The notes: a model not told the origin generated them from the letters alone. DNA of 63,916 nt, filler included, from Stramenopiles sp. TOSAG23-6 (GCA_900128565.1; 3 parts of 3 records of this genome joined end to end with filler, not necessarily neighbours in it), one strand, 5' to 3'; shown: positions 226 through 63,036, counted from the whole stretch's first letter. Numbers and translations are program-made.

Positions 226-3200
226 AACAAAAAGATGAAATCGTTCAACCAAAGAGCTCTACAACTTCGCCAGTATCTACGAAAGCCGAAGAAACTTCTC
301 CTGAAATCAGTGTCTCGGGTAAAAAAACAAATATATTACCTCTTCCACTTGATGAACTGACACCCAACTTGACCGCAATAAAAGATGAAAAAGAGCACAA
401 TACAATACAACACATCAAAGAACATATTCAAGAAACAGAAAAAGATATCGTCCAAAGTGCGAAAAATATCAAAACGCGTATTCAAGTAACAGAAAAAGCC
501 ATCGTCAAAAGTGGAAAAAAGGTTGCTACATTTCTTACTCACCACGGTACAAATCACACCGCAAACTCAGAGGATTCTCGTACTGTTGGCTTATACTCTG
601 GTGGAAATTCTTTGCCATCTTCACCGTATCTTTATCTTCCGGAAGAAAACTTTGATTCCAAAGATATGTTCATCTCTCTGTTAAATGCATGCATGAAAGA
701 CTATGAAAGACTTTCTGTAGGTGCAGCAAATCAACCATGTAGGCGAGAACTTGAACTCATGTATAAAATAACTCCTGGTGTTAGTCTTATTCAAGCTGCA
801 AGTGGTATAAAATCGTTATCTGAGGGAGGAAATCAATGGAAATGCATCCGATGTGGTCTTTCTTTACCCCTTTCAATAAGCCCAAGTGGTATGCTTTGCG
901 ATATATGTACGTTTTCAAAATTTTATTTAAATTTTGATTTTTTTTTTTGTACTACATTTTGTAACTAACAAATTTCTAATTTGAAATATTATTTCACAAT
1001 ACATGCTCTGCTACTATAAATGCCTCAGATGCAATTTCTCATGTACACAAACCCCATTTGCTCGATAATTTGAAACGGCAAGCTTCTAGAATGTTCACTA
1101 ATACACAAGAAAAGTCTAAACAAAACAAACAATGGAAAGAAAATGAAAGAGAATTTGTTCGTTTTCATCACTACTTTCAAATTTTCTTTTTTTCATAGAA
1201 AATTCCGTACCTAATGAATTTCGAATTTGACATATTTTTTCACAGTACATGCATTGCGCGAACAAATTTTGAATGATGAGAAAGTATATAGAAAACTTTT
1301 GGCGGAACCTGTCAATGAATTAGATAAATCTTTCAATAATACAAATGATGCTGGGGATCTAACTAATCAACAGTTCACACCCCGAACACAGAAATTTTAT
1401 GATGCTTTAAATTATAGACAACTTAGAATGGAAAAAAAATCAAATAGATTGAAATACTATTATGGTGGAAATGTTGAAATGTTGAAGACGTTTGATGATA
1501 GTTATGTTGAACAAGATAGTAAAGAAACTGGAGAGATGGATATAGTTTGTTCAGATTTAACTAAGCGACTACAAGGTCTTCATCACCGAAAATTCCAAAA
1601 AGGCAAACGAAAGAAAATTGATGTATTAGTAAAAGATAAAGCACCATCTGGGATAGTTCTTAGGCATACTGGAATGACTGGAGCTGTTGTAAAGAATATA
1701 TTGAATAATAGTGCTATTGCAAAAGATGGGCGGATCAAAGAAGGTATGCGGTTAATTTCAATTGATGGTCATGAAGTTGAAACCGCACTCTTTGATGAAA
1801 TACTTAGCATGTTAAAATCACGACAAATGCAAGAGCGAACGTTAACATTTGTCTCAGATACACAGTATAGAGGTTGGGGTGTCAGAGGTCCGTGGCCATC
1901 TTTTCGAGAAAGTGAGTCCTCGTGTACAAAGATTCAATCTTTATGGCGTGGTAGAATGACAAGGATAGCAACGGTTAATGCATTGGCCAATATTGAAAGT
2001 ATGGTTGTATCAACAATAAGAGATGATCTTTTACATTTACTGCCTTCGCTCGAATCCGAAAATGAAAACAGTGCAATTATTATTGATGCTAAAGGAAAAG
2101 GACTCTCCACACATTTTGGCGATGCTTCGATTGATGCTGAATTTGGTACAAAATTGTTAAAACCATTCACATATACTCACGTTATTCGTAAAGATAATAC
2201 AATAAAAATGTTACCACGGTCCAATGCTGCTAAAAGAATAGTAGGAAGTTACCTACGTATGGTAAATGATTTAGATACAACGACGTTGTCACACGAAAAA
2301 ACAATGCTACACATTCAACGAATTGAGAGTAAACGTAAACACTGTAGGTTAGTTTTCCATAGGCACTTACCAAAAGCATCAAAACTGTCTCATATAGGTA
2401 TTAAACTTGAACGAGAGTCAAAATTTGTTCATCGCTTACGTAGTGATTTATTGCAAGCTCATGAGAATAAGCACACAGGTTTCTTTCACCATGGTTGGTT
2501 TGATTCCATCAAAGAAAAAGCTACTAATTTAGAGCATACTATTGAGCACAGCGCAGCCAATTTAGAGCATAATATAGAGCGTGGCGCAGTCAATTTAGAG
2601 CATACTATAGAGCACAGCGCCGCTACAATACTTCACCATAATCAATTACCAAAACCTATTGTATTACATTTAAAGCCAGGACCTCTTGGTATTGATATCG
2701 TGCAATGTAATTCAAATGGAGGTGCAATAATTACAAAGTTCGTACCATTAAAATCTAAAACATCTAATAGAATCGTGTATAGTACTATTGCATTAGATGG
2801 ACGAATCCGACCTGGAATGATACTATCAGCAATTAATGGTGTTGATTGCACCCAAGAAAGTTTTCATTCTTTGCAGGAATCACTTTCGCAGTCCCTGACA
2901 AGTGAGCAAGTTTTGAGTTTTCGCGCTTTATCAAAAGAGGAATTAAAGCAATTGAGTATTTTCAAAATGCATGAAATGCATCCGATAAATCGCGCAGCTA
3001 TCAAAACACAGAGAGCTTATCGTGCAATATGTCACCGACGATTACAACGTAATGGTACATGGAAAATTGAGTTTGAACCAAATAAACTTTTGAACCCAGG
3101 TAAACTTAGTAGCTTGGGTATAGTATTTGATATTCCAAAATTAGGTTTTGGGGCAAAAATAGTTCAATTTAAAACGGTGAAAAAGATGGAGAAAAATAAA

Positions 3201-3614
3201 AACGAAGTAGAACACATTCCGCAAACTAATGATGTCGAAAAAAAGAAAAAAAAGAAACACACAAAACGTGAAAAGGGTGTAAAAGATGAAAAAGAAGAAA
3301 AATATGGAAGTCAAAAAGGTATTGTTGAAAAAGGTGGCGTGCTTCCAGGAGCGTTTTTGATCAAAATCAACAAACGTGATGTTTCCTTTTTAAAATTTAC
3401 CCAAATTCTTGTGTTACTTTGGATGTTCAAACGAAAAGAAAAATTGACTCTTGAATTTGCAATGCAGACAACAGAGACGGCTAAAACTTTTGCAGCTGCA
3501 GAAGCAATGAGAAAGACTCTCGCTTTTGGAACAAATCGTATTGATAAAATTCGAGAGTCGTACACCAGAGCAGGTTTGTTGTACCAGAAAACTAATTTCT
3601 ATAATAGAGTGTAA
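222..3614 (+). CDS. Multi-PDZ / IQ-motif protein with CxxC-CxxC zinc finger (3 exons; 5' end uncertain)
   Basis: Removing introns 907-1004 and 1157-1250 joins the ORFs in frame and completes CIRC...CDIC. Three PDZ-like segments (GPLGI, GRIRPGMILSAING) and IQ-like IQSLWRG. Confidence 0.7.
907..1004 (+). other. Non-canonical intron GT-AT (98 nt)
   Basis: at|gtacgt...actaac...aaatattatttcacaatacat|gc; restores frame. Confidence 0.85.
1157..1250 (+). other. Non-canonical intron GT-AT (94 nt)
   Basis: tt|gttcgt...gtacctaat...cacagtacat|g; the CAG 5 nt upstream would frameshift. Confidence 0.8.
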
Positions 3615-3708
3615 CAAATAGAAATAAGTGCAGAGGAGTGGCAGAGGAGTAGGCCTTAGAAGTAAACTTCGTAATATGATAAATAATCACTATGTATTTT
3701 TTTCCTTT

Positions 3709-3846
3709 TAATGTAAAATGTAATACAAAATAAATGTAATGTAAAATGTAATGTTAATGTAAAATTTAATGTAATGTAAAATGTAATGAAAATGTAAAAT
3801 GTAATGCAATGTAAAATGTAATACAAAATGTAAAATGTAATGTAAA
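3709..3846. repeat. Degenerate (AATGT/AAAATGT)n simple repeat
   Basis: Tandem taatg/taaaatg units in the intergenic region. Confidence 0.8.
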
Positions 3847-4049
3847 AAAATACAAGACGGCGCGGGTTAGGGTTGTTGCTGACTCGATGATATTTTTTAA
3901 TCGATATATATGTATTACTATATAGTTATAGTCTCTCATTATTACTCTATCAATGACCCAAATCCAGCTGTAAACTTTTGAACCGGATAACTTTATAATG
4001 CACTATTATTTATTGTAAAATTACAAGTCAAAAGTTCATTTCCTCTACT

Positions 4050-5456
4050 ATGACTCTTGGTGTATTAAAACATATTTGCAAATCATTAACACCAAAGGTC
4101 TATACGAATCTGCAACGACAAGGCTATGCTGTAGTTGATAATTGTATTGATATAAATCATGTAAACATTTTAAGAAAGGAAATCAATCAGTTAAAACAAA
4201 GAAACGCACTTCATTTAAACTCAACGCGCATGGTGACGCAATGTGGCGAAAATAATCATCTTCAGAAAGATAAAATATGGGAGCTTGATCTTTTTAACGA
4301 CGAATTGCTTGATTGTGAAAATCTAGCTGCTCTTAACTCCGAAACTTGTTTAATAGAACACTTGAGCCAGAATCTCTTTACTTCTCACAATAAAATACAA
4401 ACCACACAAAGACTTAATCTACAAACAGCAAAAGTTCAGTTCAATGAAGGGGCAGGTGGTTGTTTTCCTTGGCATTTTGATACAGACCCGTTGATAGACT
4501 CGCGACGTATTACAGCAATACTTTACCTTAATCATGAGTGGGATGTGAAACATGGAGGTCAGCTATGCTTGTCTCCTTGGCCAGAGCCAACAATTAAAAT
4601 AGACCCCGTAGGTGGTCGCATTGTTCTATTTAGTTCCGCAGATATTGTGCATCGAGTCTTACCCTCTAGTGTATCTCGTTATTGTTTAACTCTTTGGTTT
4701 TGGGCGAATGACAAAAGTTCCGTAAAGCATCAAGCAACTTTCAAAGAAAATAGAGAAAATCAGGGACAAATCTCAATGTACAAACAGTGGAGAGGTGCAA
4801 ATGTTTGTACACAAACGTTAGATATGCTACAGGAAAGTATTAAAAGTCATACCGCTGAAGAAGCGGATGAAGTTTTGCGTAGAAAATGTCCAAACAAGTT
4901 AGGTTTAGATAGCGAAAAATACAAAATAGACAAGAATGATTTGTTTGCTGCACTACAAATTCTTCTTCAACCTCAGTATCGTCGACATTTGATCCGATGG
5001 GCTATTGGAGAAGAATGGGCTCAGTCCATCATTGAAAGTCATGGAAAAGGAATAGCTACTGATAAAGCTGTACAACAAATGTACGTTTTAAATGAATTTC
5101 TAATTTAATTTTTTTTCATACGAAATTTTGTACCTAACGAGTTTTTTTGAAATATTTTTTCACAATACATGTACACAGAACTTGATATCATTGAAAATAT
5201 TCTTGTTAAACTAATACAAAACTCTACGGTAATCAAAGGTTACACTTCTTCAACACCATCCAGGTTGTCATCAAAAAATGATGAAATACAGAATTCTAAT
5301 TATGCGAAAAATTTACTTCAATCATTAAGGAAATCACAGGAGTTGGAAGACTTACTACTACCTTATTATAAACGAATGAATACATTGTTGACTGATGATG
5401 ATGATGTCCAAACAAATTTACCTTTGATAGATTGGTTTGAGAAATATAATGTTTGA
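4050..5456 (+). CDS. 2OG-Fe(II) oxygenase, EGLN/prolyl-hydroxylase-like (2 exons)
   Basis: WHFD...RRITAILYLN...GGQL...HRVLP...RY motifs; intron 5081-5170. Confidence 0.85.
5081..5170 (+). other. Non-canonical intron GT-AT (90 nt)
   Basis: at|gtacgt...aaattttgtacctaac...cacaatacat|g. Confidence 0.85.
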
Positions 5457-11143: not shown

Positions 11144-14100
11144 TCAGTCATCAGAGTCGGATTCAAAATCACTATCACCAGAAGTATTTAGTGAATCAAT
11201 TGCATTGGAACTATTTGCCACATTTTTCACAACATCCGAATCTTCAAAATCAGAATCGTCATCAAAGTCATCACTAGATCCATCTTCATTTAACGATGCC
11301 TCAATTGTACTTTGTATTGCTTCTTTTTGCTGAAGCTGGTTTTCTTCTTCCTTTTGAGCAATTCTTTCAGCTTCTAGAGCACGCTGATTTTCTATCTTTA
11401 TCTCAAGCTGTCTTTGCTGTTTTGTTGATTCGTGTTGTTGGTGGTGTTGTTGGCGATGTTGTTGTTGGTGATGCTGTTGGTGATGTTGTTGGCGATGTTG
11501 TTGGCGATGTTGTTGGTGTTGGTGTTGTTGGTGTTGGTGTTGTTGGTGATGTTGTTGGTGATGTCGTTTGTGATGCCGGTGATGTTGCTTTTCTATTTCT
11601 TCTTTTCGCCGGCGTTGGCGTTCTTCTTCCTCCTCCTGACGTTTTGCATTTGGTTCTTCTTCTTGCGCATCTCTTTCAGTTTCTATAGTACGTTGTGTTT
11701 GTCTCTCAACCTCTCGCCGTCGTTTTTGTTCTGCTGATTGTTGTTGTATTTTTTTCGTCGCTGCTTCTTCATCTTTTATCGCAACTTCCGAATCTTCAAA
11801 ATCTGAATCGCCATCAAAGTCATCACTAAATTTATCTGCGTCTAATGATGCAGATATATTTTCAGTTAGTTTTTTCTTTTTCTCTATCTCATTTGAGGTG
11901 GAATTTGATGAAGTTGAAGATGAAGAGGAATCAGAAGAGGAATCAGAAGACGAAGAGGAATCTGAAGTTGAAGTTGATGAAGAATCCGAGGACAAAGTTG
12001 AAGATATGGATGACTTAATTTGGTTACCTTGATTTGAAGTTTGTTTTGCCCTCTCCACTGATGATTGCTGATGCTTTGCTTTTGCTTCTGCTTCGGTCTT
12101 TCTTTTTGCCTCTCCTGCCTTTGCTTTTGCTTTCGCCTCGGCTTCCGCCTTTGCTTTTGCATCTGTTTTGGCTTTTGCATCTGCTTCTGCTTTAGCCTTT
12201 GCTTTTGCTTTTGCTTCTGATTCAGCCTTTGCTTTTGCTTTAGCATTTGCTTTTGCTTCTGCTTTAGCCTTTGCTTTAGCCTTTGCTTTTGCTTCTGCTT
12301 CAGCCTTTGCTTTTGCTTCTGCTTTAGCCTTTGCTTTTGCTTCTGCTTTAGCCTTTGCTTTTGCTCTTGCTTCCGCCTTTGCTTTTGCTTCAGCTTTTCT
12401 TTTTACATCTGTTTTAGCCTTTGCTTTTGCTTCTGCTTCAGTCTTTGCTTTTGCCTCGGCTTCCGCCCTTGCTCTTGCTTCTGCTTCAGTCTTTGCTTTT
12501 GCTTTAGCCGCTTCCCGTTGTTGATTTGAAAGCTTTTGTCTTCGTCTTGCTTCTTCCTTCTTCATCGCTTCGTTCTGTTTTGCGATTCTTTCTTTTTCTT
12601 GAATCGCTGCGTCTTCATCATTTAATTTTTCAGTAAAATATTTTTTTTCATTTTCTGCTTTATTCTTTTTTTTCATACTTTGATTTGCTTTAATTTCCAT
12701 ATTCCATTTCTTGATCTCATCTGCAGTAGGAAGTAGACTATGTTGGAGATATTGAAGTTGTAGAGCTTTTTCCTTATTAATATCTAAAATCTTGAAAACA
12801 ATTCGGGCATTTTTTTCATGTAAATGTAAACTCACAGCTGGATGTGAAAGACCCACGAGAAATTCCCGAAATGTTATGGAGCTACGACGACCGTCAACAC
12901 AAAACCCAAAAAATGATTCTGATGACACGTGCCGTCTCCAAAGTCTCCGTTTTACTTTCAAAAGTAATGACTCTTCTTTAAGCTTTCTATCTTGTCTTTG
13001 TTTTTCTCTTGTGACTTTGACGTCATCATTCGTCGCCTTGTCACTCGATTTAAGGTGTAATCCAAGTTCACGTCGCCTTTTATTTATATCCAATCTATGC
13101 TGAATCGATCTTCGTCTATCATGTTTTTTTCTTTTTCTTTTCATCAAATCTTCTAATGTTTGAACTTTAGATTTTACTTTCAATTCATTCTTACGAAGAT
13201 TCCGGAGTTTTTGTTTCGCAGACTTTGCCTCCGCCTTTTTTGCTACTTTCATTTCTCGTTTCACTCTTTTCGCAAGTTCTTTACGTTTGAGGTATAGTTT
13301 TCTTTGAATTTGTTTCTTCTTTTTTGTACTAATCAATTGTTTTTCTGTTCGATGTTGAAGCCTAGTTCTTTCAACCTTTGTTACCTTTAACTTATGTGCT
13401 AATTCTCGACTTATCCTTTCTTTTATCATCAGTTCTTCTTCTAATTGTTCAATTTTCGACTTTTGTACTTGAACATTGCGATCCAAAATTTGATTCCCAA
13501 TTCCACCTCCCCAAGGTTTTTTATATTGTAATTTATATTCTATTGTGCTACTATTCAAGTCAGTGTTTTTTTTGGTTTCATGGATCTTGTTCTTTTTCAA
13601 TGAAGGTAATAAAGCAGGACTAGTTTTATAACCTACCAATTTACCTCTTCGATTACGACGACTCTCTGTTAGGGCAAACATGCCTGATTCTGATCTAAAT
13701 GCAGAAATACCATTTGGATACTTTTTGGAGCCACCGTAGATAACGCCAGCAGTTCGAAGATCTCGAGCATCTTTTCGTGTACCGTCTTTGCTACTAATTC
13801 CGACTCCTTTACTAGGAACATCTTTTCGTGTACCGTCTTTGCTACTTATATCTATAATTCGTTTTTGAGTTTTATTTGTCTTGTTTAATTTACTTATATG
13901 TGATTTCCATTCATTATTAAGAGGAATTTGAGGGTATTTTGGTATACTATTCAGAGACTTTTTTCTCTCTTTCTTAATTTTTGCTGGAAAAAATAGAGTC
14001 TTTTCTATTAAATTACTTTCTATTTCAGTTCTCTCTGCTTCAAGTTTCAACTTCTGGCGACGATCAATTGTTTCTAGATAATTCTTGTATGGTATTTGTT

Positions 14101-15433: not shown

Positions 15434-15980
15434 CTAATTCCGCTTCTTTCTAACTTCGGATCCGGAAGAGCTATAAGAGAGGTAGCTAGTGAAGAGAAAA
15501 AAAACGTGTGCACATAATGGAACTACTCTATATTGTGAAGAAATATGTTTTACAGTTTAAAATTTGTTATTTTCGTGACACTACAAATATTGATTCTCAT
15601 AGATATACATTTAAAAAAAAATGAAATTAAATAATGAAAACGTATGCCCAACTTCCATCCCTTACAGCACTTTCAGGACGCCAAGGCTTTCCAAGATATG
15701 TTGAACCAAGAGAAAGTGCCCAAACCAAATTGTATAGTGTCGCAAAAGCATTCATACGTTTATCATCTTTAAGGCACGCAAGCAGCAAACCATAAAAAAT
15801 AATTACACTACCAAACCATTCAAAGGCTAACGTTTCGTACCCAGAGGACGGTGTGTAGCCATTTAGTAGACCAGCAGGGTTTAAAATAAAGGTCACTCCT
15901 GCAAAAATCTCAAAAGCACTCGAACCATAAGTGGCATATGTCAATAAAGTCATGCTAACAATAATTAAGACTTTCAACAA
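15434..15980 (-). CDS. Small multi-TM hypothetical protein (2 exons; start uncertain)
   Basis: Splicing 15528-15645 continues ...GSWAVVPLCAHVFFLF...RKKRN*. Confidence 0.6.
15528..15645 (-). other. Variant family intron, AT-AG (or GC-AT if slid 2 nt)
   Basis: gc|atacgttttca...catatttcttcacaatatag|a; restores frame. Confidence 0.6.
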
Positions 15981-20749: not shown

Positions 20750-20770
20750 AATTAAACACTAAAACTTTCT

Positions 20771-39576: not shown

Positions 39577-39606
39577 TTCTTTTGGTTTTGATTTTTTTTT
39601 TTTTTT

Positions 39607-42888: not shown

Positions 42889-42988
42889 NNNNNNNNNNNN
42901 NNNNNNNNNNNNNNNNNNNNNNNNNNNNNNNNTTAATTAATTAANNNNNNNNNNNNNNNNNNNNNNNNNNNNNNNNNNNNNNNNNNNN
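42889..42988. other. Assembly gap / contig linker
   Basis: N-run containing TTAATTAATTAA. Confidence 0.95.
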
Positions 42989-43071
42989 TATTTCAAAAAA
43001 AAAACTTAAATTTGTTAGGTACGAAATTTCGTACGAAAAAAAAATAAATTAGAAATTCATATAAAACATAC

Positions 43072-47483: not shown

Positions 47484-48880
47484 CTAACTGTCTAACTTTT
47501 CTAATAACCATGGATGAAGTTGTGCTTGCTCCCCATTATATCTACAATTCGGGTCTGGATGTAGAAGCCGACTAACTAAATCTTGGGCTTCTTTTGACAC
47601 CGTTTTCCAAATTGGATGATCAAATTTTACATGTTGTACATGTTTGGAAGTCTTTACATATTTGTTAGGGTTAGGGTTACCAAAAAGCCAATTTCCAATT
47701 TGTTGTAGAGGTGTCCACTGTAGGTCATAATATTTTTCAACGTTTTTCTTAATGGGAAATGGAGGATAACCACAAAGCATTATATATAGTAAGCAACCGA
47801 CGGAGAACCAATCAGCAGGAAAGCCATACTTCTGACCAATGTATATTGTGAAAAAATATTTCAAATTTTTGTAAAGTTTTTTGTTAGGTACAAAATTTCC
47901 TAAGAAAAAAATTCCAAGGAAAAAAAAAATGAATAATGAAAACGCATTTTCTTGACTTCTGGGGCTTGAAAGCCAAATGAACCACACACTGTATCCGTGA
48001 TTAAGCGAGGGTTATAGCTATTATTTGAGTGACTACTGCTGCTGATAAAGTCTTCTGTGACTTCATCTGACTCCATTTTTAAAGCTAAGCCGAAGTCACA
48101 AATTCGAATTTTGTATTTATTTTGGGTCATTGAAGGAGTGTTTAATAGCAATATATTTTCAGGTTTGAGATCTCGATGTAAAATACCGAGTGTGTGTAAT
48201 GTAAGAACTCCACTGATAATTTGACTGATAATATCCGCTGCTTCACTTTCACTCAAATGTCCTTTTTTTACGATAAGATCAAATAATTCGCCACCATCAG
48301 CTAACTCAGTAACAATAAATATTCGTGATGGTGTTTCAGAAATATCATACACACCAATAATCGGGGAACACATTTGACGAGGATAATTTCCTAACCCTCC
48401 AACTAATCCTGAACCTACACTTGAAAAATATGGCTTTCTAGATTGTAGTTGTAGGAGAGCAAGAAAGCGAAGAATATTAACTTCGTTTTCAATTTTAGCA
48501 CTAGCAGCAAGCTTGTGCCAGAACCCTTTGAAAACTATTTTGACAGCGCATGGTCTTGAACATTGATGAAGGTCTGCTGCAGCCCAAACGTCACTAGTCC
48601 CTCCTCGATTAAGAAAGTAAAGCAACTTATACCGTCCTTTTTTTCCAACTAAGTTGCCTGCGGAATACGAAAAGTATTGCCGTAGAAAACGTTTTACAGA
48701 GCTGCTACTATAAAAAAAACTACAACCTACAACAGCAATAGCTGCTATAGTGACATAACCTCCTTTAGGTGGATTAAATAGCATTTCACGGGTTGTTGCA
48801 ATAACAAAAGTATAAGTCAGATTCAATGTATATGAAAAATTATTTGGCCAAAAAAAAAAGATGATCGACACAAGCACCAA
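47484..48880 (-). CDS. CAMK-group Ser/Thr protein kinase (2 exons)
   Basis: AVK, ELADGGELFD, HRDLKPEN, DFG, APE, D.FS.G; intron 47839-47945. Confidence 0.9.
47839..47945 (-). other. Non-canonical intron GC-AT (107 nt)
   Basis: at|gcgttttca...gtacctaac...cacaatatacat|t; gives APEVKKIGQKYG. Confidence 0.75.
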
Positions 48881-49127: not shown

Positions 49128-52107
49128 ATGATATTTGCAATAGTTCTATTTACGTTAACGCTTATTCCAAGTGTTTTATCTGTTGAGAAAGTTTTACCAA
49201 ATCCTTTTATATTCTTTGGTTGTTATCGCCACGATTCACAAGCTCAGGTATCTAAATGGGGGTCACAGATCGATGGATTTACTTGGGAAGAGTGTGCACA
49301 AACTGCAGCTGCAGCTGGTAGCCTGTGGTTTGCAATGGAATTTCCTCAAGGATTCAAAAAAGTCGGGACTGCCAACTGTGGTCATCGAGGCCATTTCTCA
49401 TTAGAAGGCAGAGTACCAAATTCCATGTGCGAGGCAGAAATGAATAAAGGAAAACGTCTCGGTGGTTCAAAATTGATGGCAGTTTATTTCAATCCTTCAG
49501 AATATAAGTTGAACTTTCAGTCACTTTTACATTCAGAGTTTTTATTAATTTGTAAACTTCAAGTACAAATTGACAATATATCACATGTAATATATTTTGA
49601 TGCTGAAGAAGATTTAATGCTAGTAGCACATACTTTTGCTATAGAACATGGTATTTATCCTATTACAACTACTGTAGATTCACTCTTTCCTTCTTGTACG
49701 TTGTCTACTTTTACTTTCATTTTTTTTTCGTACGAAATTTCGTACCTAATATTTTTTTTCCATATAAAATCCAAATCCTATAATTTTTTTTCTGTATTGT
49801 CCCTGACGAATTTTAAATTTTTGAAATATTTTTCAGCAATATTTGGGAAATTTATCAAAGAATAGATTTTCCTGTAAAGTCAAAACTATTAGCCGATGAT
49901 AAAAAAAGCCCTAACCCTAAGGCATTTTCTACGAATTCATCTCGTCCTTTACTAATTAATCATAATATGTATAGAAAAGCGAAACAAATAGCTCGGATAT
50001 CTTCGGATGTAGATCGCATGTACGTTTTCAAAATTAAATTTTAAAATGTTTTCATACGAAATTTTGTACCTAACGATTTTTTACAAAAAAAAATATTTTT
50101 CACAATACATTGGTCTTGGAGTCTCTCAAAATGGATTGCTCAATAGATTATTGATTCAAGGTGAAGGAATCATGTCTATAAATTCTCCAAATATACAAAT
50201 CCCTGATGCGTATTTATTGAATAAGGCATCCGTTATGATTGGCCTTCAAAATATTGATGAGTATCATCAAAACACGAAATATAAGTCTCCAACTAACTTG
50301 TTCGATGTACATGGTACTGCTCATAATAATGACAAAGATGATGATTATAACTTTGAACAACGAAAAAATGTCCAAACTAGATCATATATTGAAAAAAGCA
50401 AAGAATCTGGAGAAGCAGACATTTATTTTATTAGAAAAGGTGAAAGAAAAAATACTATAAAAAATAATAGTGATGATAGTAAAAGCTATGATAATAGTAT
50501 GATCAAACTGAAAGCCCCAGTTCAATATGTCTTCAAGGATAGATCAAGATATTGGTTAATTCAAGAGCAAATGATTCGAAACAAACCTGCTTCAATGATC
50601 ACTGTACTTGAGTCAATTGTACGTGAAGCTTACTTGGATGAGTTGGCAATGTTATTAGGCTTACAAAACTCATATGTTTCGTCTGCACCTGCATGTACGT
50701 TTTTATCATGAATTTCAAATTTATTATCGTTTTTAGTACAAAATTTTGCACCTAAACAAAAAAGATTTTTTTTTTTGAAATATTTTTCCACAATACATAC
50801 ATATGTTTAAAACGATCTTTTGATGGTCATAGATGTATTGTGAAAAAAATTGGCATTCTTCAAGATTTTGTGCAAAGTCCATTTAAAAAAAAATCACACA
50901 AGAAAAAAGATCAAAATGATAAAGATGAATTTTTGCCAGGAGATTGGCGATCACTTTTAAGAATGGATGAAGCTACGCCTGAAAGAGTGAAGGAAATTTC
51001 GCAACGTTCATTTCAGGATGTAGCCTTACTTTTTTTTGTACGTTTTCAACATCAATTTCATGTTTTTTTTTCCATAAAAAATTCAAACCTAAAGAAATTT
51101 AAATGTAAACATATTTTCTCACGATACATATCACAGCTCATCCTGATCTTCATGGGGGGAATCTTCTAGCTCATACTCAAAAACTACAAAAACAGAAAGA
51201 AACAAATGATGATAAATTTGGAAAAATTGAAATGAAACTAATTGATGCCGACATGACATTTAACCACTCTCCAGGCTGTCATGTTGGAACAATACGAATG
51301 CCTTGTATTTTTGGAGGAGCTGCGACGTGTACGTTATCCACATTTATTTCAATTTTTTTTTTTTTTGAGTTTAAAAAAAAACATTTTTCAATTTTTTTTT
51401 GAGTTTAAAAAAAAAACATTTCATACCTAACAATTTTATTTTTTTATTTTTTCACAATACATTCTTTTCAAGTCCATGTATATTTTCAAAAGGTTTCCAT
51501 AACAAGAATGGTTTGGATGCATGTCCGTCATTTCCGCATATACATCTTCCATTTGATGATCACTCAATTGAACTTATACGAAATTGGAATCCTGAAAAAA
51601 TTAGAGAAAAGTTTTTTCGTAATGAATCGATTATTGAAGACGCCTGTTGGCGTCTTGATATATCTCCTTTTGTTTGTCCCTCAATGAAAGACATTTTTCG
51701 TAATGGTACAGTAGAATTATTGATGTTACGAATTGAAACACTTAAAGAAATTCTTGGAATATATGTATATTTTCATCGTGAATTTTAAATTTATTTTTTC
51801 GTACGAAATTATGTACCTAACGATTTTTTATCCAAAAAAAAATATTTTTTTCACACTACATGATCAAACAAAACAGAATAATACAAACAATAGTGATATG
51901 AAACAGATGTATGACGAAAAAGATGAAATGGAAAATGTTTGTGTCGATGAAAACAAAAAATGTAGACAGTTTAGTGCAAAAAAAACAATTTTGGAGGTAT
52001 ATGAAGAATTTGCCCCTCTTTACATATATAAAATTCTGAGATCTGGTGATAAAGTATTTGCTCATTATAATAGAAATGAATTTGTTTTAGGTGGCGCGAT
52101 GCATTGA
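49128..52107 (+). CDS. Secreted protein with atypical kinase-like domain (PI4K-II/Fam20/HipA-like motifs), 7 exons
   Basis: Signal peptide; spliced product has YVFK, GILQDFV, DLHGGNLL, LIDAD; six family introns. Confidence 0.65.
49696..49844 (+). other. Non-canonical intron GT-TT (149 nt)
   Basis: tt|gtacgt...ccctgac...cagcaatattt|gg. Confidence 0.7.
50020..50110 (+). other. Non-canonical intron GT-AT (91 nt)
   Basis: at|gtacgt...gtacctaac...cacaatacat|t. Confidence 0.85.
50695..50798 (+). other. Non-canonical intron GT-AT (104 nt)
   Basis: at|gtacgt...cacaatacat|ac. Confidence 0.8.
51038..51129 (+). other. Non-canonical intron GT-AT (92 nt)
   Basis: tt|gtacgt...cacgatacat|atc. Confidence 0.8.
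51329..51462 (+). other. Non-canonical intron GT-AT (134 nt)
   Basis: gt|gtacgt...catacctaac...cacaatacat|tc. Confidence 0.8.
51765..51861 (+). other. Non-canonical intron GT-AT (97 nt)
   Basis: tat|gtatat...gtacctaac...cacactacat|g. Confidence 0.85.
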
Positions 52108-52353
52108 AATGATCATTGAAATGAATAAAATTTCTTTTAAAATAACTATTTTAAAATAAAAATTGTGAATCATTTTATTTTATGTTTGAAAAGATTCGAT
52201 GTTTGAACAAATAAAGTTCAAACATTATTTGAGGTATTTCCAAAATTTTCTCTAATATCACAAGGAAATGCAAAAGTGTCGGACTCAAAACTGATATTTT
52301 TTTGAGTTTTTTTTGGGTTTTTTTTTTTGAGTGTATTACATTAGGGTTGGGGT

Positions 52354-52654
52354 TTAATCGGAGAATATAGACAAAGAACGATCCTCTCCAACTTTTTCAG
52401 AAGAATCATTATTATCATTGTTATTATTATCATTTTCATCACCAATGTGCTTCCGAAGTTGCTCTTTCCATCGAGAATGCCAAGTACTGTGAAAAAATAT
52501 TTCAAAACATTTTTAATTTTGTTAGGGTTAGGTGTACCACAATTTTCTATGAAAAACTAAATAAATTTGAAATTGAAATGATAAAAAAACGTACAATCAT
52601 CAGCACTTGGCCCCGAATCACCAAAAACACTATTTTCTTCTCCCATTTCTTCTT
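52354..52654 (-). CDS. Displaced 3' end of the gene starting at 63364
   Basis: 52590-52654 is the reverse complement of 63852-63916; after splicing reads ...SADDWHSRWKEQL...SD*. Confidence 0.65.
52482..52594 (-). other. Non-canonical intron GT-TT (113 nt)
   Basis: tt|gtacgt...cctaaccctaac...cacagtactt|gg. Confidence 0.75.
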
Positions 52655-53122
52655 TGTAGATACGAAGCCACGTCGACCAGGGCGACGTCCTGCACATGCT
52701 TTATAAAGGTCATCGAATGAAACACCCTTTGAGTTGACAGATTTTTCCTCATCTGAGTCTGAACTATCCGAACTATCAGAACTATCAGAACTATCGCTAT
52801 TACATCCTGGAATGATGACCTTGAATTTTGAATTTGACGCATAGATATCCGCAAAATGACCAAGATCAAAGCTTTTACTTTCCTCTTCTATTTTCTCAGC
52901 TTTGTAGCCGAGACCGTCGTCTTCATCTTTTTTGACTGCTTTGATGTGCGTTGTAATTCCACTCTCAGTCTTTCCAAGACCTTTTCCTTTCCAGCCCATA
53001 CCTGCCAACATTCGCTTTGACCAATCATTTGGACCAGTTGCATTCTGCTCATTGACAGTGGAACACATCTTCGATAACGTTTTTCTCGATGCACATCGAA
53101 TTGTCTCTGCAATTGCCGTCAT
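52655..53122 (-). CDS. G-patch protein (PinX1/GPATCH4-like), 3' end lost at a junction
   Basis: KRMLAGMGWKGKGLGKTESGITTHIKAVKK...GLG. Confidence 0.8.
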
Positions 53123-54491: not shown

Positions 54492-56465
54492 CTAAATAAC
54501 ATTTGGAGAACGACCAACGATCACCATACTCTGACGAATTTGCTTACGATTCATATTTTCACCTTTAATCATATTTGTCCTTCTTTGCTCATGCATTGTC
54601 AAAAAAAAAAACAGACTCAAAATGTTTTTGTTAGGTACAAAATTTCGTATGAAAAAAAAAAACTAAATTTGAAATTCACAATGAAAACGTACATATTTTC
54701 GTTTATCCCAATGTCTTTTAAATCCTCCCGTCCAGGACGATTCGCCTATTTTGAGTCTCTGGAATTGCAAATGTTTTTCTTCATTGAAGTTTCTCCGTGT
54801 TGAACGTGAAGCAGCCGCACTTTGAGTTCGCTTATATTTAGATTTAGATGAAATACCAGTTTTATTCTTTGAATTCATTCCGCGATATTTTCGATCAGAG
54901 TGTCGTGTAAGTGGCGCTGAGGAAATTTGCCTTCCAGATCTATTTTGTTTTGTACCAAAATTTGTAATTTTTGTTCTATTTCTATCGTATTTTTCTGTAA
55001 CCAGAGATTCCGCACTCTTACCAAGATATTGCTCATATTGCTTCGTAGTCACATCTACGCTTTGTCTTGATTTTCTTGAAGCTGATGAACATAGTCTTTC
55101 ACTTCTGGTTGCTGGTGGTCTTCTATGGCCTGCATCTGTCGAGCCAGGGCGTTGTGTAGATCTCAAGGTACCCGCTGTGGTGGGTCGTGCAGTTTTTCTT
55201 TTCATACGTCTATTTGTACCAAATTCTGTACCTAACGAACGCCTTTCTTGTTTCGGACTTATTGGAGCCTTTACAGCGATAAGTCTAAAGTTCATATCAT
55301 TATCAATATGATTTGAACGATTTACTACGCGAAAAGCGGACTGAGCTGTTTCGTTAGACAACGGACCACTTTCAGTATTATTCCAGGCAATTTTTTGGTT
55401 GTAATGCTTGTTCTGTATTGTGGCTGAACGTTTTTGGTTATGATGCTTGTTCTGGTGTGTGACTGAAGGAATGACGTTGTCCTTAAGTATTGTGAAAAAA
55501 TATTTCAAAAAATCTAAAAAAAATTGTTAGGTACAAAATTGCCTATGAAAAAATACATTCGAAATTGAAAAATAATGAAAACGTACAATATCATTAGAAT
55601 TCGTCAAATTACTTTGAAAACTATTACTTGAACTACATCTTGAACCACGATCTCGAGTACTACTTGTAACACTTTGTTCATGAGCAGCAATTTCAATTCG
55701 GTACGCATTTGCTAAAGCTGTACCGATACTACTATTATCTGAATTTTGGACTAATGGCGGCGTTGGAATGAATGCCGATCTACTTTCGAAATCAAAATTA
55801 TCAAAGGTATTACTATGAGTTGGCTTTACAGTACGTTGTTGTGTGTTCTTTTCAATAGACTCTTGCTCTTTGTGTACAATACTTTCCTTATTTTCTCCTA
55901 GAATGGTTTTGTTAATACTATCTTCACCGACGTTGGTTTCACCGAAAAGATCAACTATTGATAAATATTCTTCGTCACTACTGGTACAATATTGTGTAGT
56001 TGAATTTGACAAAAATCGTTTTGGCTTATGCATATTTCGTTTATACTTATTTCCTCCGTATACTAGTATTTTTTTCCTATTTTGAAGCATCGTTTTCTTT
56101 CTTGGTACGAACTTTTTAACACTTTTAGAAGTGACTACATCAGGGGAGAATATTCCAGAAATTGCATTATCAAAGCTGCCCCTTGGATCTACACTTCGCT
56201 TATGTTTTTTATAGCTATTACATTCATTGTTGTAGACTCGCCGAGCATTCACGAGTTTCTTATCAAATACTCGTACTGATTTCTTTCCTACTGGAGATAC
56301 CAATACACTTTTCTTGTGTAACGTGTGCGACGTTTTGTTTACCTTTTTCTTCTTCGGTGAATAGGACATAAGCACCTTGCGCTTTCCCGAATTAGCAAGT
56401 TTAGACTCCTTAAACCTTCTGTCCATATTAATGATTTGGTTTGTTACAAGATAATCATTGGTCAA
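54492..56465 (-). CDS. Hypothetical basic/disordered protein (3 exons)
   Basis: ORFs join in frame after removing 55485-55586 and 54591-54692. Confidence 0.65.
54591..54692 (-). other. Non-canonical intron GT-AT (102 nt)
   Basis: tat|gtacgt...gtacctaac...gacaatgcat|g. Confidence 0.8.
55485..55586 (-). other. Non-canonical intron GT-TT (102 nt)
   Basis: att|gtacgt...gtacctaac...cacaatactt|aag. Confidence 0.8.
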
Positions 56466-56727: not shown

Positions 56728-58128
56728 ATGANAAAAAACAGAAGAAATAAACCACGCAAGGATAAGAAAAAAACTAATAATAGATACTTTAAACAGGAAA
56801 AATACCAAAATCGTAAACATCGAACGAATCAGAAAAGTTCTCAAACTCGGAGTCAACATTTTCAGTCAGGAAAATGTTCGAGTCAAACGACAGAGCCTAG
56901 CGACATAGCAGTTTCAATAGCGGCGCTTATTTCCTCAAAACCAATCGGGAATGCAAAAAATACTAGTAATATACAACGTACAATGCACGAGAGCAAACAT
57001 GAAGCGATAGAAAAATTTTCTTTATTGGAACTGGTTGATAATAACCCTTGCTGGATTGATACTTTACCAAGGGTACTCTTGCTGGAATGCTTTTCATTTC
57101 TAGGAACAGATTCTCTTCATAAAGTTATATGTATAAGATGGCAAGAATGTTTACGTTCTAAAGCTGCTTCATATTGTATATGGCATCGTATATATTTTCA
57201 TACATTTCCAACATTACCAGATTTCTTCCATCTTTATCAACATTCAAATGAAATTTCTGAATGCGATTCCTGGTTAACAGCTTGTTCTCGAAGGTGGGAG
57301 CAAGATAATCAATGGCTCAATGAATCCTCATCATGGAAAGAGTTAAAACTCTCATGGTATTCGCGTGAAGAATTGCATGTTGGTCCAGATCAGGAGTTTA
57401 AGGATATTCGTAGCGCGTTAGATTATGTATTGTTTCATCATTAAATACAAATTTATTTTTTTTACTATGAAAATTCTGTACCTAACGAAAAATTCAAATG
57501 TAAAACATATTTTTTCAGAATATATGGTGGACCTTTTGACAGAATTGTTGTACATCCTGGTCAATACAGACCTTTATTAATTACTATAGTTAAACCTGTT
57601 GAAATAATTGGTCTTACCAAAAATAATCCAAAAATGCTAGAAAATAATTTCAGAGACAACGTTTCAAACTCTAATCCAAACCCTCAAAAAGTTGAAAAAG
57701 ACAAATTTCTCTTACTTCAGGACACACCCATAAAACTCGATATTCACATTGAAGTTAAACTAAAGTCACATCAAACAGCCAGAATGGCAAATTTTCATAT
57801 TTGTTCTTCAAGCAATGCTGATTTTCCCGTTGATTCGTTATCTGGTGTAGAGAGTGTAAGTGGATGCCTGCAACTTGATGATTGCATAGTAGAACGTGCG
57901 AATGTTTCCTTGTTAAAAAAGCATCCTTCACCTTTGGCCGGTCGTCGAGATGGTTTAGGTAATGGTATCATTGTACCTTCACGCTGTATTTTCAAAAAGT
58001 GTGTATTTTATGACACAATCTGCCCAGCCACACTTGACAATTTAAGGTATTCAAAAACAATTAATTGTGTTTCAAATGAGGATGAAGTTCCATGGCCTAA
58101 TGGAGAAGACTTAGTACTACCAATTTAA
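56728..58128 (+). CDS. F-box protein with beta-helix-like C-terminus (FBXO10/11-like architecture)
   Basis: LPRVLLLECFSFL...VICIRW F-box; spliced ALDYGGPFDRIVVHPGQY. Confidence 0.7.
57427..57525 (+). other. Non-canonical intron GT-AT (99 nt)
   Basis: tat|gtattg...gtacctaac...cagaatatat|g. Confidence 0.8.
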
Positions 58129-58606
58129 AAAGTCAATGCTAAACAAATTGAATTATGTAGAGATGAAAAAATATTAGATAGTACTAAATTGTACTAAATT
58201 GTCTGGAGAAATATATTATATATAAAAAGAAAATTTGTTGTAGTACTTTTTACATTTTTTTTTGGTACAAAATTTTAAATTTTGGTATTAATACGTGGAA
58301 TAAGAATTTATCAGTTTTAGACTTTGGAAAATACTTTCGGAAAGACTTTCCGGAAAGTACTCTTTGGTACAAAATTTTGTAATTAAAATAAAAATTCATC
58401 AAGTTTCCTATCTTCGTCAAAAAAATTCCGGAAAGTCTTTTTTTTGGTACAAAATTTTGTACTTAACGTTCAAACGTCGATTTTTTTAAAATTTTCTACA
58501 GGAGCGCGCGGCAATCTGCCCCTTTTACCATTTTTTATTTAAAAATTAGATTAGATTAGATTGGAAGTTGGAACGAGTCGAAACTTTGCGTTTGAAATTT
58601 TGGAGG

Positions 58607-61485
58607 ATGCACCGTTGCTCCATTGTCATTCTTTTCTCATTAATCAGTACAGTCTTGGGCGTCCCCGCTAGCAATCTCGGCTCCAACACGTATAGTCTTG
58701 GCGATGGTGCCGGCAACGACAGAGGGTTTCACGTGCGTGTACCTGCGGGAACGGGCCCATTCCCCGTGGCCATATTGCTGCACGGCAAGGGCGGAAGCGG
58801 TACCGGAATGCTCTCTGACTTTGTCGATAATGTAGCATTAAACCCCTTGTCCAACTCACACATCCTCGTTGCACCCGATGGTAAGGACAACTCATGGAAC
58901 ATTGTGGCTGAGCCGTCAGAGCTGGACGACGTCAAATTTGTAGGCACAACTCTGGTTAACCATTTGGTGTCCTTTGCAAACGTTGAGGCAAAGTTCACGT
59001 TGATCGGGCATTCTAATGGAGCAGGTTTCACGAACCGCATCCTCATTGAGAACGACGACGTTCGCATCGTTGCTGCTGTCACCGACGTCTCGCAGCTAAA
59101 TGAGCGTCAGTACCGCAACTCCAATTTCTATATTGGAGGGACTAACAACGACTACACCACCGTCAAGAATACACTCACGGCCCGCAAGCTGCTTCAGATC
59201 ACAGGCGCACAAGATACCACCATTCCTGCCAATGGCGGGGAATCCCCTATTCCGGGTGCGCGGAATAACCCTGAGACCAAGCTTAGTTTTGTGGATTGGA
59301 AGGTTTCCATCTATGCATACGCGGTTGCATACGGGTTTAAAGCACCAGCGAATGTAACAAAGGACGACAACGAACTCACACAAATGAGCTTTCTAAATGG
59401 CAATGTTCAAGCATACAACTTCAAAACTGGAGGTCATGGAATGTTTCCTGGTGATGGTGACGCAAACTCAAAGAAAGCAACGGCTGTTGTCCTTGCTTTC
59501 CTCGGACTCACAACAACAACACCAATACCTACACAAGTTTCAAAAACCATAAAAATTGATTGGTTATCTGGATTCGGAGATGCATCAAAAAGAAAAAGCA
59601 CAGCAAATCCGGGTGATAGTGTAGAATTCTCATGGATTGGACAACATAATGTGTTAGAGCTGCCAACAGAGACAGCCTTTGATGATTGCGATCTGGGCTC
59701 TTATACCGTCGTTGGGGGTGAATCAATAACATCAAGTACGGATGCAATTACCTCTCCAGTTACTTTCACGATTCCATCAAATGCTGCAGGACAGACTATA
59801 TATTTTGCATGTGGTAAGACAGGGCACTGCACTGGCGGACAGAAGCTGGCTGTTGTTGTGGAAAGTCCTGCAACTCCAGCCCCAACACCAGCAACTCCAG
59901 CACCGACGCCAGCAACTCCAGCACCGACGCCACCACTTCCAGCATGTCCTCTTCTCAGAATCAATGTATTGACCGCAGATTGCTCTTGCAACGGAGTCAC
60001 ATGTTACAAAGGTCTGTTTTGTTACGATAATAAATGTGAAAAGGTAGCCCAGGCGGCACCAACTCCAGCACCGACGCCACAACTTCCAGAATGTATGGAT
60101 GATCCTTCAAATGCATCGATCGCAGATTGCTCTTGCAACGGAGTCACATGCTACAAAGGTCTGTTTTGTTACGGTAATAAATGTGAAAAGGTAGCCCAGG
60201 CGGCACCAACTCCAGCACCGACGCCACATCTTCCAGAATGTCGTGAGGATCCTTCAAATGCATTGAACGCAGATTGCTCTTGCAACGGAGTCACATGCTA
60301 CAAAGGTCTGTTTTGTTACGGTAATAAATGTGAAAAGGTAGCCCAGGCGGCACCAACTCCAGCACCGACGCCACATCTTCCAGAATGTCGTGAGGATCCT
60401 TCAAATGCATTGAACGCAGATTGCTCTTGCAACGGAGTCACATGCTACAAAGGTCTGTTTTGTTACGGTAATAAATGTGAAAAGGTAGCCCAGGCGGCAC
60501 CAACTCCAGCACCGACGCCACATCTTCCAGAATGTCGTGAGGAGAGGATCCTTCAAATGCATTGAGCGCAGATTGCTCTTGCGACGGAGTCACATGTTAC
60601 AAAGGTCAGTTTTTTTATGATAATAAATGTGAAAAGGCAGCCAAGGCGACACCAACTCCAGCACCGACGCCACAACTTCCAGCATGTCTTGAGGATCCTT
60701 CAAATGCATTGAGCGCAGATTGCTCTTGCGACGGAGTCACATGTTACAAAGGTCAGTTTTTTTATGATAATAAATGTGAAAAGGCAGCCAAGGCGACACC
60801 AACTCCAGCACCGACGCCACAACTTCCAGCATGTCTTCAGGATCCTTCAAATACATTGACCGTAGCTGATTGCTCTTGTAACACAGCCACATGCTACAAA
60901 GGTCAGTTTTGTTACGATAATAAATGTGAAAAGGAAGCAAAGGTGACACCAGCACCAACACCTGATGCTTCGTCAAGTCCAAACTTTACTCCTTCAGATG
61001 ATGTAACACCAGCACCAACTCCTTCCAAAGAACAGACCATAACTCCAAATCAAGATACCAAATTCCAATCTGATGTTTTGATAATCTTTCAGCAGCAATT
61101 TGATCCTTCAGCAAATTACTCCGCACTCGCGAAAGAAATTTGCGATGCAGTTCAAACAAAGACAGCTAATAAAGGAGCAACAATGACAATAATTGGGGCA
61201 AATTGTGAAAACAGTATCAAATTCCGTAGTGGTTCACTTGTAGCTGAATTCAAAGTCACTTTAGAGGCACCAGCAAAGAGTTCAGCGGCATCAATAAATA
61301 ACACTGTGCAGCTACAAGTTCTTGACCTCTTACAACAAAAGAAAGTCAATAATGGTGCCACACCAACAGTCAAGGTGAACACTTCAACAGTACAAGATGT
61401 CACAATTGTCGGGTCGTTTGCGTCACAGGCGAGTTTATCAAGTATAGTGATGACTTTGATTATTGTAGAAATTCTTATGAGTTAG
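58607..61485 (+). CDS. Secreted alpha/beta-hydrolase (esterase) + cupredoxin-like domain + Cys-rich repeats + hydrophobic C-terminus; one frameshift near 60541
   Basis: Signal peptide, LLHG.GG, GHSNGAG; HNV...YFACG..GHC..GQK; the repeat array continues in ORF 60562-61485. Confidence 0.8.
59975..60960 (+). repeat. Coding tandem repeat, 147-bp (49 aa) unit x7
   Basis: ADCSCNGVTCYKGLFCY.NKCEK..PTPAPTP.LP.C units starting at 59975, 60122, 60269, 60416, 60568, 60715 and about 60865. Confidence 0.9.
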
Positions 61486-61903
61486 TTTTGGATTATATAC
61501 ATCAAAAAAAACATACAATAAAAATACTTTTACAAAAAAAAATCTTTTATTTAATAAAGCGATAGAATAGTGGATCAGATCTCACTCGTGTATTTTCTTT
61601 CTACCTATGCGCCTGGTTGCAATTGAGTCCTGAAGCAATTCGTGATACACCATTTGCCGTACCACCAAACTCACCAAATGGTGCAAAAATTCGTTTCCAT
61701 CTAGATCTCAGATCAGTCGAGAAAATACAGTTTTCGAATTTTTACATGTTTCACAATTGAATGCTACCTGAAGTATTTTTAAATGAAATGAAATGAAATC
61801 TGTACTGAAGAAAGTATCGTCAAGTATCGTGCCGAAAAAAACTCAATTGAAAACGTTTTAGTAAAATATAAAAGAAAAATTCGTTTTTAATATACAAAAA
61901 TTC

Positions 61904-63036
61904 TTATAGGTGAGTGTCTCTTCTCCCTGAGCTAAGAATTCTCCGACGTTCTTGAAGGTACCTGAGAATAATCCGAGTCAATATTTCTTCTTCTCGTGAT
62001 TGAAATCTAGTTTGAAATCTACTATTACAAAGGTATAATTTGTAGAGTAAGAAAATTACATACAATAATCTAATAATTATTCTTAGGATTATGTATAGTG
62101 AAAAATATTTTTTTTTTTTGGTTTAAAAAAATCGTTAGGTACAAAATTTGGTACAAAAAAAAACATTTGAAATGATGAAACGTACATGAGCCCTTGTAGG
62201 AAAATAAAAAGGAATACATGCTGCCACGAAATACGAAAAAATGTAGAGGAAAGTTCATTTGCTTCAATTTGAAATAGTTGCCACTCTACTATATCGCGAC
62301 TAGTATATGGTTTACCTTGTATATTATTCAAGAATGAAGCTTTGATAATTTTGAAAAATAAATGAAAAATATTTGACATTTTTCTCGAAGCTGTTCGTCT
62401 TTTTATAGAATTTCGCAAGCTCTTCATCACATCTTTACTATCTTGGAAGAAAAGATCCACCTTATCCTCCTTTTGTGTTTGATTAAAATCGTTTCTATAG
62501 GTTAATAGGCCACTTTGAAGTTCGGTGAGAAGCTTTGGATGTCTGTATAAATATTTGCCACTATCAACTTCCCAATTATAAAGTTTTGAATCTACTTCAA
62601 TTCTATCATATTGTTGATCACTACACCCAGCGTTATCTAAACTTACAAGTGACATAAAATAATTACCCTCGCGTATTGCTTTTGAAACTTTGGGGCAAAT
62701 TCGAGCTTTGTCACGCACAGTAGAATTTATTAATACATTATTTGTAGTAATCAAATAGGTAGCCAAACAGAAGAGAGAAACCCAGAAAAAAAGCCAAAGC
62801 GATAAAGATTGGTAAAAAACCTTCTGTTCACGTCGATTGTCATATGCACGTAGGCGATAAAAATGTATACCTAAGTCAGAGTTTGTATTACTTTCTAAAG
62901 GTCTAAATAACCAGTGTTCTCGTGGGCGGAGTAGCTGCCGATATCTTCCGTATCTCATTTGTCCTTCATCATCAGTCAAAGTAGTTACTCCAAATACTCC
63001 ATCATGTGGCCTTTCATGGACACCAAATGATCTCAT
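61904..63036 (-). CDS. Hypothetical membrane protein (2 exons)
   Basis: Splicing 62091-62185 extends a TM segment and reaches TAA at 61904. Confidence 0.6.
62091..62185 (-). other. Non-canonical intron GT-AT (95 nt)
   Basis: at|gtacgt...gtacctaac...cactatacat|a. Confidence 0.8.

Follow-up and report, generated by a model that had tools for sequence, protein, structure and literature searches.

Introduction

Introners are thought to be a main source of new introns, and the families described so far mostly give canonical GY-AG introns, their AG being either carried or co-opted. Families that bring their own 5' splice site and draw the 3' splice site from the target-site duplication have been described, and in the passages that treat them the co-opted bases are AG; the same passages give a 4-bp duplication for an introner family of Chrysochromulina sp. 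and a 3-nt duplication supplying the AG for IE1 of Micromonas pusilla (Gozashti et al. preprint; PMC11282704). The present report concerns a family of short inserts that interrupt genes in a 63,916-nt stretch of DNA from Stramenopiles sp. TOSAG23-6 (GCA_900128565.1), referred to as the window. With the introners portrayed in those passages the inserts share a short high-copy element, introns in unrelated genes, a donor supplied by the element, last bases derived from the target and an apparently exact restoration of the mRNA. Whereas those introners co-opt AG and form canonical introns, the duplication here is 2 bp long, reads AT, TT or AA and contains no AG; moreover, inverted termini are barely present, and no antisense or intergenic copy was seen in the window.

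The AG-AC and AG-AT introns of Fritillaria borealis are presented in the sections devoted to them as transposon-derived, with an exonic TAC repeat forming the 3' end and an adapted U2-type splicing (PMC11282704; PMC13326754). The inserts resemble them, as so presented, in transposon origin, in the exonic repeat at the 3' end and in the non-AG ends. The Fritillaria introns lack a 5' GT, whereas a textbook GTAYGT donor, a yeast-like CTAAC branch and a compact protist genome are found here. The introner elements of Amoebophrya and the nonconventional introns of euglenids and diplonemids also combine repeated introns, direct border repeats and non-GT-AG ends in the account given of them (PMC11282704). 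By that account they have inverted repeats of 8-20 nt or extensive end pairing together with variable 5' ends, whereas no conserved pairing is predicted for the present family and 33 of its 34 complete copies begin with GT.

U12-type introns tolerate non-AG 3' ends and have a conserved branch motif ending in AAC, and their defining motifs are an RTATCCTT donor and a TCCTTAAC branch lying 10-15 nt from the intron end. Unlike them, the inserts have a GTAYGTTTT donor, and of the 31 copies with a branch, 28 have it 30-45 nt away from the 3' end, the remaining values being 25, 29 and 95 nt. An Rfam scan of the window returned no match to a small nuclear RNA or to any other family. Ciliate internal eliminated sequences are likewise short AT-rich inserts in coding DNA, flanked by a 2-bp repeat of which one copy stays; the present inserts differ in their strict sense orientation, their splice-like internal motifs and their presence in metagenome DNA contigs. 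A literature search found no described introner family that combines a canonical donor and branch with a non-AG, target-derived 3' end (GT-AT), supplementary family tables, which could hold one, lying outside this search. What seems new here is the target-derived non-AG 3' end; introners with their own 5' site and a co-opted 3' site were already known.

The insert family

The window is compact, AT-rich eukaryotic sequence (36% G+C), and open reading frames (ORFs) of at least 120 codons occupy about 82% of it. Its genes encode an AFG1 ATPase, an ABCC transporter, an Fe-ADH, QueH, a fatty-acid hydroxylase, a JmjC/cupin protein, a protein kinase and a G-patch protein. Since near-identical DNA is found in seawater metagenomes, the source is taken to be a marine protist.

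Inserts were mapped with an nhmmer profile made from 15 seed copies and rebuilt with 28, complemented by direct reading of the matches. Between positions 907 and 62185 there are 34 complete inserts of 86-157 nt, in addition to two that are cut by N runs and one degenerate copy; a preliminary description of this DNA had given the same length range and a count of 35 complete inserts. All belong to a single homologous family, as judged from the nhmmer matches and a 28-copy alignment, with a mean pairwise identity of 68% (range 47-88%). Despite this divergence the copies keep GTAYGTTTT, TACCTAAC and TTTTCACAATACAT, and also AAATTTTGTACCTAAC and TTTTCACAATAC. GTAYGTTTT alone occurs 25 times in the window, against 2.05 expected and a maximum of 5 in shuffled sequence.

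The first two bases are GT in 33 of the 34 complete inserts and GC in one, while the last two are AT in 29, TT in four and AA in one, a tally identical to that reported before, and AG in none. Conservation at the end is highest for A at -2 and T at -1. The extended U2-type donor GTACGT or GTATGT is present in 25 of 33 inserts and a CTAA-type branch motif in 30 of 33, at 30-45 nt from the end in 28 of these and at 25 and 95 nt in the other two, and a T-run precedes CAC near the 3' end. Donor and branch motifs are U2-like, as the preliminary description had recognized: compared with U2-type introns, the inserts have the donor, the branch motif and the pyrimidine tract, and they lack the terminal AG. 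The orientation of the insert is the sense of the interrupted ORF in all 33 cases tested (two-sided p = 2e-10), and likewise in the 34th. Tandem or composite inserts occur at 27874, 34608, 43149 and 49696 and fit DNA insertion. Three seawater runs were consulted, namely X3 (an independent metagenome DNA run), X6 (an RNA library that was not polyA-selected) and X10 (a polyA run); in all three, insert bins have a depth hundreds of times that of unique sequence, and the family is therefore very abundant.

Target-site duplication at the insert ends

The preliminary description overlooked that the terminal dinucleotide of the inserts copies the 2 nt preceding the GT. The last base is identical to the base before GT in 33 of 33 inserts, and the last two bases are identical to the two before GT in 29 of 34. 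The match is locus-specific, all four TT ends following an exon that ends in TT and the sole AA end following AA (Fisher p = 0.00075), and it stops at 2 nt, the -3 position matching in none of the five TT and AA cases. A terminal repeat of this kind is the signature used for calling introner target-site duplications, according to the relevant part of the Gozashti et al. preprint. The last two bases of the inserts are a 2-bp target-site duplication, usually AT, and the inserts are introners. Because these bases copy the target, including in all TT and AA cases, AT, TT or AA is not a fixed acceptor signal. The AG-free 3' site proposed earlier thus survives in one respect, the non-AG end being borne out by frames and homology, and fails in the other, since dinucleotides that copy the target in 29 of 34 inserts are not a selected signal.

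Two other insertion models were set aside. A Helitron-like element entering between A and T with no duplication would need coincident end mutations in all five TT and AA cases, and a duplication extending leftward beyond 2 nt conflicts with the 0/5 matches at -3. A fixed ruler from branch to end was also discarded, as the distances range over 25-45 nt. The insert borders are equally writable as AT..AC in 29 of 34 cases. At 34373-34466, the sole informative junction with homology, the GT..AT register places Leu opposite L1135 of MRP1 and the AT..AC register places His there, which favours GT..AT.

The inserts are listed below; the two exon bases before an insert precede the slash, and the first and last bases of the insert follow it.

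907-1004, plus strand: insert of 98 nt, AT/GT..AT; frame restored (237/63 codons)
1157-1250, plus strand: insert of 94 nt, TT/GTTCGT..AT, no repeat match; CAG 5 nt before the end
5081-5170, plus strand: insert of 90 nt, AT/GT..AT; 2OG-Fe(II) oxygenase gene
15528-15645, minus strand: degenerate family copy of 118 nt with AT..AG termini (E = 1.3); frame-compatible join to a 31-codon ORF
17303-17401, plus strand: insert of 99 nt, AT/GT..AT; AFG1 ATPase junction 1, profile 251 then 256 at amino acid 5
17714-17804, plus strand: insert of 91 nt, AT/GT..AT; AFG1
18111-18212, plus strand: insert of 102 nt, AT/GT..AT; between EF-hand halves
21336-21432, minus strand: insert of 97 nt, GT/GT..AT; only the last nt repeats
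21437-21495, minus strand: 3' part of an insert, the rest cut by an N run
25950-26075, minus strand: insert of 126 nt, TT/GT..TT; splits the QueH YCGC motif
26132-26223, minus strand: insert of 92 nt, AT/GT..AT; QueH
26361-26446, minus strand: insert of 86 nt, AT/GT..AT; QueH
27874-28027, plus strand: composite insert of 154 nt, two tandem copies, AT/GT..AT; fatty-acid hydroxylase gene
28088-28194, plus strand: insert of 107 nt, AT/GT..AT
29829-29929, plus strand: insert of 101 nt, AA/GTATCT..AA; in-frame internal AG at -30 also possible
30883-30976, plus strand: insert of 94 nt, AT/GT..AT; ABCC gene
31258-31353, plus strand: insert of 96 nt, AT/GT..AT; ABCC
31543-31635, plus strand: insert of 93 nt, AT/GTTTGT..AT; ABCC, ABC_membrane profile unbroken
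33408-33496, plus strand: insert of 89 nt, AT/GT..AT; ABCC
34373-34466, plus strand: insert of 94 nt, TT/GT..AT; ABCC, CAG 5 nt upstream skipped, MRP1 residues 1135/1136 colinear
34608-34756, plus strand: composite insert of 149 nt, AT/GT..AT; ABCC
42989-43071, minus strand: 5' part of an insert, the rest cut by an N run; Fe-ADH gene
43149-43305, minus strand: composite insert of 157 nt, AT/GTCCGT..AT; Fe-ADH
43638-43728, minus strand: insert of 91 nt, AT/GT..AT; Fe-ADH
43827-43930, minus strand: insert of 104 nt, AT/GT..AT; Fe-ADH, profile unbroken (82, split codon, 85); within an X3 DNA contig and an X6 RNA-library contig
47839-47945, minus strand: insert of 107 nt, AT/GCGTTT..AT; protein kinase
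49696-49844, plus strand: composite insert of 149 nt, TT/GT..TT
50020-50110, plus strand: insert of 91 nt, AT/GT..AT
50695-50798, plus strand: insert of 104 nt, AT/GT..AT
51038-51129, plus strand: insert of 92 nt, TT/GT..AT
51329-51462, plus strand: insert of 134 nt, GT/GT..AT; X10 polyA contig departs from the genome at 51327
51765-51861, plus strand: insert of 97 nt, AT/GTATAT..AT
52482-52594, minus strand: insert of 113 nt, TT/GT..TT; CAG 5 nt upstream; X10 polyA contig match ends at 52483, X6 contig retains the insert
54591-54692, minus strand: insert of 102 nt, AT/GT..AT; in-frame AG 3 nt downstream
55485-55586, minus strand: insert of 102 nt, TT/GT..TT; in-frame AG 3 nt downstream
57427-57525, plus strand: insert of 99 nt, AT/GTATTG..AT
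62091-62185, minus strand: insert of 95 nt, AT/GT..AT; in-frame AG at +9

The two sites at which inserts are cut, 21496-21595 and 42889-42988, each consist of two 44-nt N runs around a 12-nt linker with stops in all frames; they are scaffolding joins, each cutting through one insert of the family. Partial matches to the family also occur. The intergenic spacer at 58250-58470 holds three copies of its palindromic core GGTACAAAATTTTGTAC, without the donor or the 3' motif, perhaps as a relic, as a source sequence or as a regulatory motif. A minus-strand gene carries in a coding exon, at 55213-55240 (plus strand) and in antisense, 28 nt that match the family's branch-site core (E = 4e-4).

Reading frames and protein colinearity

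Deletion of 33 inserts leaves 16 continuous ORFs with one to six junctions each, in agreement with the earlier statement that about 16 genes are interrupted, all in the sense orientation (34/34). Examples are an ABCC protein of 1401 aa through six junctions and an unknown protein of 773 aa, also through six. At 29 of the 33 junctions the longest frames of the two sides run into each other (p = 1e-10 versus one third), and the four exceptions border short exons of 4-37 codons.

The claim that removal restores conserved protein motifs is corroborated by nine junctions that are fixed to within a residue by Pfam, the MRP1 structure (PDB) or QueH homologues. Pfam profiles run unbroken, to one residue or less, across six junctions (AFG1, Fe-ADH, ABC_membrane, ABC_tran, QueH and Pkinase). 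The exons on either side of 34373-34466 end and resume at adjacent positions of MRP1 chain 8f4b_A: the upstream exon closes opposite residue 1135 and the following one opens opposite residue 1136. The spliced QueH product is colinear with its homologues at all three junctions; the alignment comprised the first 40 of 61 stored proteins of 170-260 aa, nearly all from 150 representatives, and the YCGC motif interrupted by the TT-ending insert at 25950-26075 is shown by 8 of the 40. Exact removal to a non-AG end is thus demanded by the reading frames together with homology, and is supported by both.

Searches with other exons brought no further junction evidence: no homologue matched the 66-aa exon between two informative junctions, none among longer proteins matched the 194-aa exon, and the G-patch exon retrieved one EukProt protein (P0001) with 65% identity and two distant ones. 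Two of the host genes have irregularities of their own. In QueH, an in-frame TAG at 26238-26240 (minus strand) occupies the place of a Trp conserved in homologues; TGG has probably changed to TAG here, whether by an error in sequencing or amplification, as an allele or in a gene that recently became a pseudogene. In the G-patch gene at 52595-52660 (minus strand), the homologue P0001 and the hydrophilic character of the alternative frame suggest a frameshift within an A-rich run close to where exon 1 ends; both frames are open across the insert.

Contigs from RNA and DNA libraries

One X10 polyA contig matches the genome over 52348-52483 and continues with 19 unmatched letters; its break at 52483 fits the TT border plus the 2-nt repeat, not the CAG 5 nt upstream. 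Another matches 51222-51327 and continues with 45 letters that do not enter the insert. The X3 metagenome DNA contigs include the inserts at 43827-43930 and 47839-47945. From the strict sense orientation, the conserved motifs and these contigs, we infer that the inserts are probably spliced at the RNA level and independently of AG; the RNA contigs themselves give no more than two boundary hints in favour and two retained inserts against.

Interpretation and alternatives

We estimate at roughly 0.6 the probability that the inserts form a high-copy introner family of short transposon-like elements, non-autonomous and generating a 2-bp target-site duplication, from which the mRNA is restored without an AG. 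In such a scheme an element would insert into a gene and duplicate a 2-bp target, usually AT. Only sense copies would survive in coding exons, because each brings a strong GTAYGT donor, a TACCTAAC branch and a T-tract. The element proper would end in CACAATAC, and restoring the mRNA would mean removing the element and one target copy, so that the intron, when written from GT, would end in the letters of the target: AT, sometimes TT or AA. Removal would presumably take place in the RNA, through the major spliceosome, with a first step of the conventional kind, and in the second step the 3' site may be set by its position relative to the element's own 3' motif rather than by an AG. A more far-reaching version, which we advance only tentatively and with rather less than even confidence, is that the spliceosome of this organism no longer reads the last two intron bases, that the T-tract and CACAATAC set the cut 2 nt further on, and that the family is the main intron class of the genome.

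A number of observations weigh against the introner interpretation. Second-step splicing chemistry reads AG, and AG-free selection therefore needs changed machinery. The five inserts without a full repeat all end in AT, the exon copy being the one that differs. Terminal inverted repeats are 4-6 nt at most (GTAY..RTAC), and an autonomous partner element and an empty site were both looked for in metagenome, viral and prokaryote contig scans and not found. In these scans, the 590-aa ABCC exon retrieved only two distant metagenome loci (30-37% identity), neither a close relative nor an empty site being among them; a 16-mer search of viral contigs gave 28 loci, none fitting the family profile, and a stricter pattern gave none; and prokaryote genome contigs gave no match with one pattern and three with another, all in bacterial records. 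Complete copies are absent from the 16% of the window taken up by neither ORFs nor inserts, and this confinement to ORFs is odd for a DNA transposon and fits better with RNA-mediated spread. Among the 15 of 285 joint rows listed, no contig aligned on both sides of a junction. Both RNA-library contigs seen to span whole inserts, those of X6 at 43696-43946 and 52333-52654, retain them with 0 or 2 mismatches; X6, being not polyA-selected, may hold DNA or pre-mRNA. Finally, AG ends do occur here: the degenerate copy at 15528-15645 ends in AG, and a GT-AG intron lies at about 41326-41454 in a Mutator-like gene. This intron contains three tandem copies of a repeat and is similar to the insert family in its 5' end and branch region. 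The Mutator-like transposase gene itself (38605-42605, minus strand; Pfam PF20700) is unrelated to the inserts and includes two adjacent ORFs in the same frame, split by a stop at 39606/39607.

Were the inserts ordinary GT-AG or GC-AG introns spliced at nearby AGs, the non-AG ends would be an artefact of the boundaries of the family alignment, an account to which we attach hardly any credence. It could draw on AGs in frame with the same donor at most 9 nt from the end of three inserts, 55485-55586 (+3), 54591-54692 (+3) and 62091-62185 (+9), and on the in-frame AG at -30 in the AA case, the only insert to which the preliminary description had conceded an adjacent AG. These close in-frame alternatives are fewer than chance predicts and therefore provide no argument for AG use, while leaving the four inserts individually ambiguous. 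Some in-frame AG within 60 nt exists for about 20 of 33 inserts, which is again the chance number, and only 7-9 of 31 inserts have their first AG at least 8-20 nt past the branch adenine in frame, the chance rate, in a count that leaves out two inserts without a recognizable branch motif. At least 10 inserts have AGs between branch and end, and five have a CAG 5-8 nt before the end that is out of frame in every case; MRP1 colinearity at 34373-34466 is preserved only if such a CAG, 5 nt upstream, is passed over. With the nine residue-fixed junctions added, AG use at nearby sites is statistically rejected.

The remaining explanations accept the non-AG ends. According to the preliminary description, a modified major or a diverged minor spliceosome would have let the lineage as a whole replace its AG acceptor by AT, the inserts being ordinary introns. 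This we regard as unlikely, even though AT ends 29 of 34 inserts with the strongest end conservation at A(-2) and T(-1), AT is still the end of the five inserts whose flanking repeat is incomplete, and the host genes of the window showed no other intron type: ends in TT and AA are confined to inserts that follow TT and AA exon ends (p = 0.00075 as above), as expected of a copied target rather than a signal that is read, and all these introns are one homologous family. The minor-spliceosome variant falls with the absence of minor-type signals, the donor being GTAYGT instead of RTATCCTT and the branch lying 30-45 nt from the end in 28 of 31 copies instead of 10-15 nt, and an extension to a whole lineage is more than one window can support, with the GT-AG intron of the Mutator-like gene speaking against it. 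Somewhat less probable still is a removal from RNA that is non-spliceosomal or only partly spliceosomal, with the transposon ends defining both cuts, as proposed for euglenids, diplonemids and Amoebophrya. Over 5-6 nt, exon AT plus GTAY at the 5' junction is indeed the reverse complement of RTAC plus AT at the 3' end, and the published descriptions of those systems also have non-AG ends and border repeats resembling target sites; however, RNAalifold predicts 0 pairs on 28 copies and no conserved pairing, the outer two pairs are lost in the TT and AA cases, and the conserved GTAYGT and TACCTAAC with strict sense orientation fit recognition by U1/U6 and U2. Excision at the DNA level in the manner of ciliate internal eliminated sequences, with one copy of the 2-bp repeat left behind, seems very improbable to us. 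Short AT-rich coding inserts, a 2-bp flanking repeat, short inverted termini and the need for precise removal would all agree with it, but DNA excision does not require the sense orientation found in 34 of 34 inserts, nor does it suit an internal branch-like motif at a roughly constant distance from the end; the assembly and the X3 metagenome DNA contigs contain the inserts, no DNA joint falls at an insert border among the joint rows listed, and the genetic code is standard.

Other features of the window

Several repeats lie apart from the insert family. A non-coding minisatellite is found at 3700-3850, and coding tandem-repeat arrays at 12038-12571, 22297-23054 and 59804-60990 have periods of 12-18 nt, 72 nt (leucine-rich-repeat-like) and 147 nt. 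Telomere-like CCCTAA/TTAGGG runs occur within the loose ends of RNA contigs at 47243-47259 and as short internal stretches of the window (52340-52350; 3860-3875). A 365-nt element is present in two inverted copies with 99% identity (21596-21960 and 37719-38083), each copy being a foldback with arms of 136-141 nt; one adjoins the Mutator-like gene and the other an N run.

Outlook

If transcripts confirm the proposed removal, the two splice-site choices would be separated in nature, a conventional first step being followed by an AG-free second one. The organism would then offer a natural system for studying what besides AG positions the 3' splice site, and for the co-evolution of splicing machinery and mobile elements. 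There are practical consequences as well. Gene finders that demand GT-AG would break most multi-exon genes here, and possibly in related uncultured marine protists, and introner surveys that start from annotated introns, to judge from what their texts state, would miss families of this type. If the last two intron bases are indeed left unread, a mobile element can make perfectly removable introns at any target dinucleotide.

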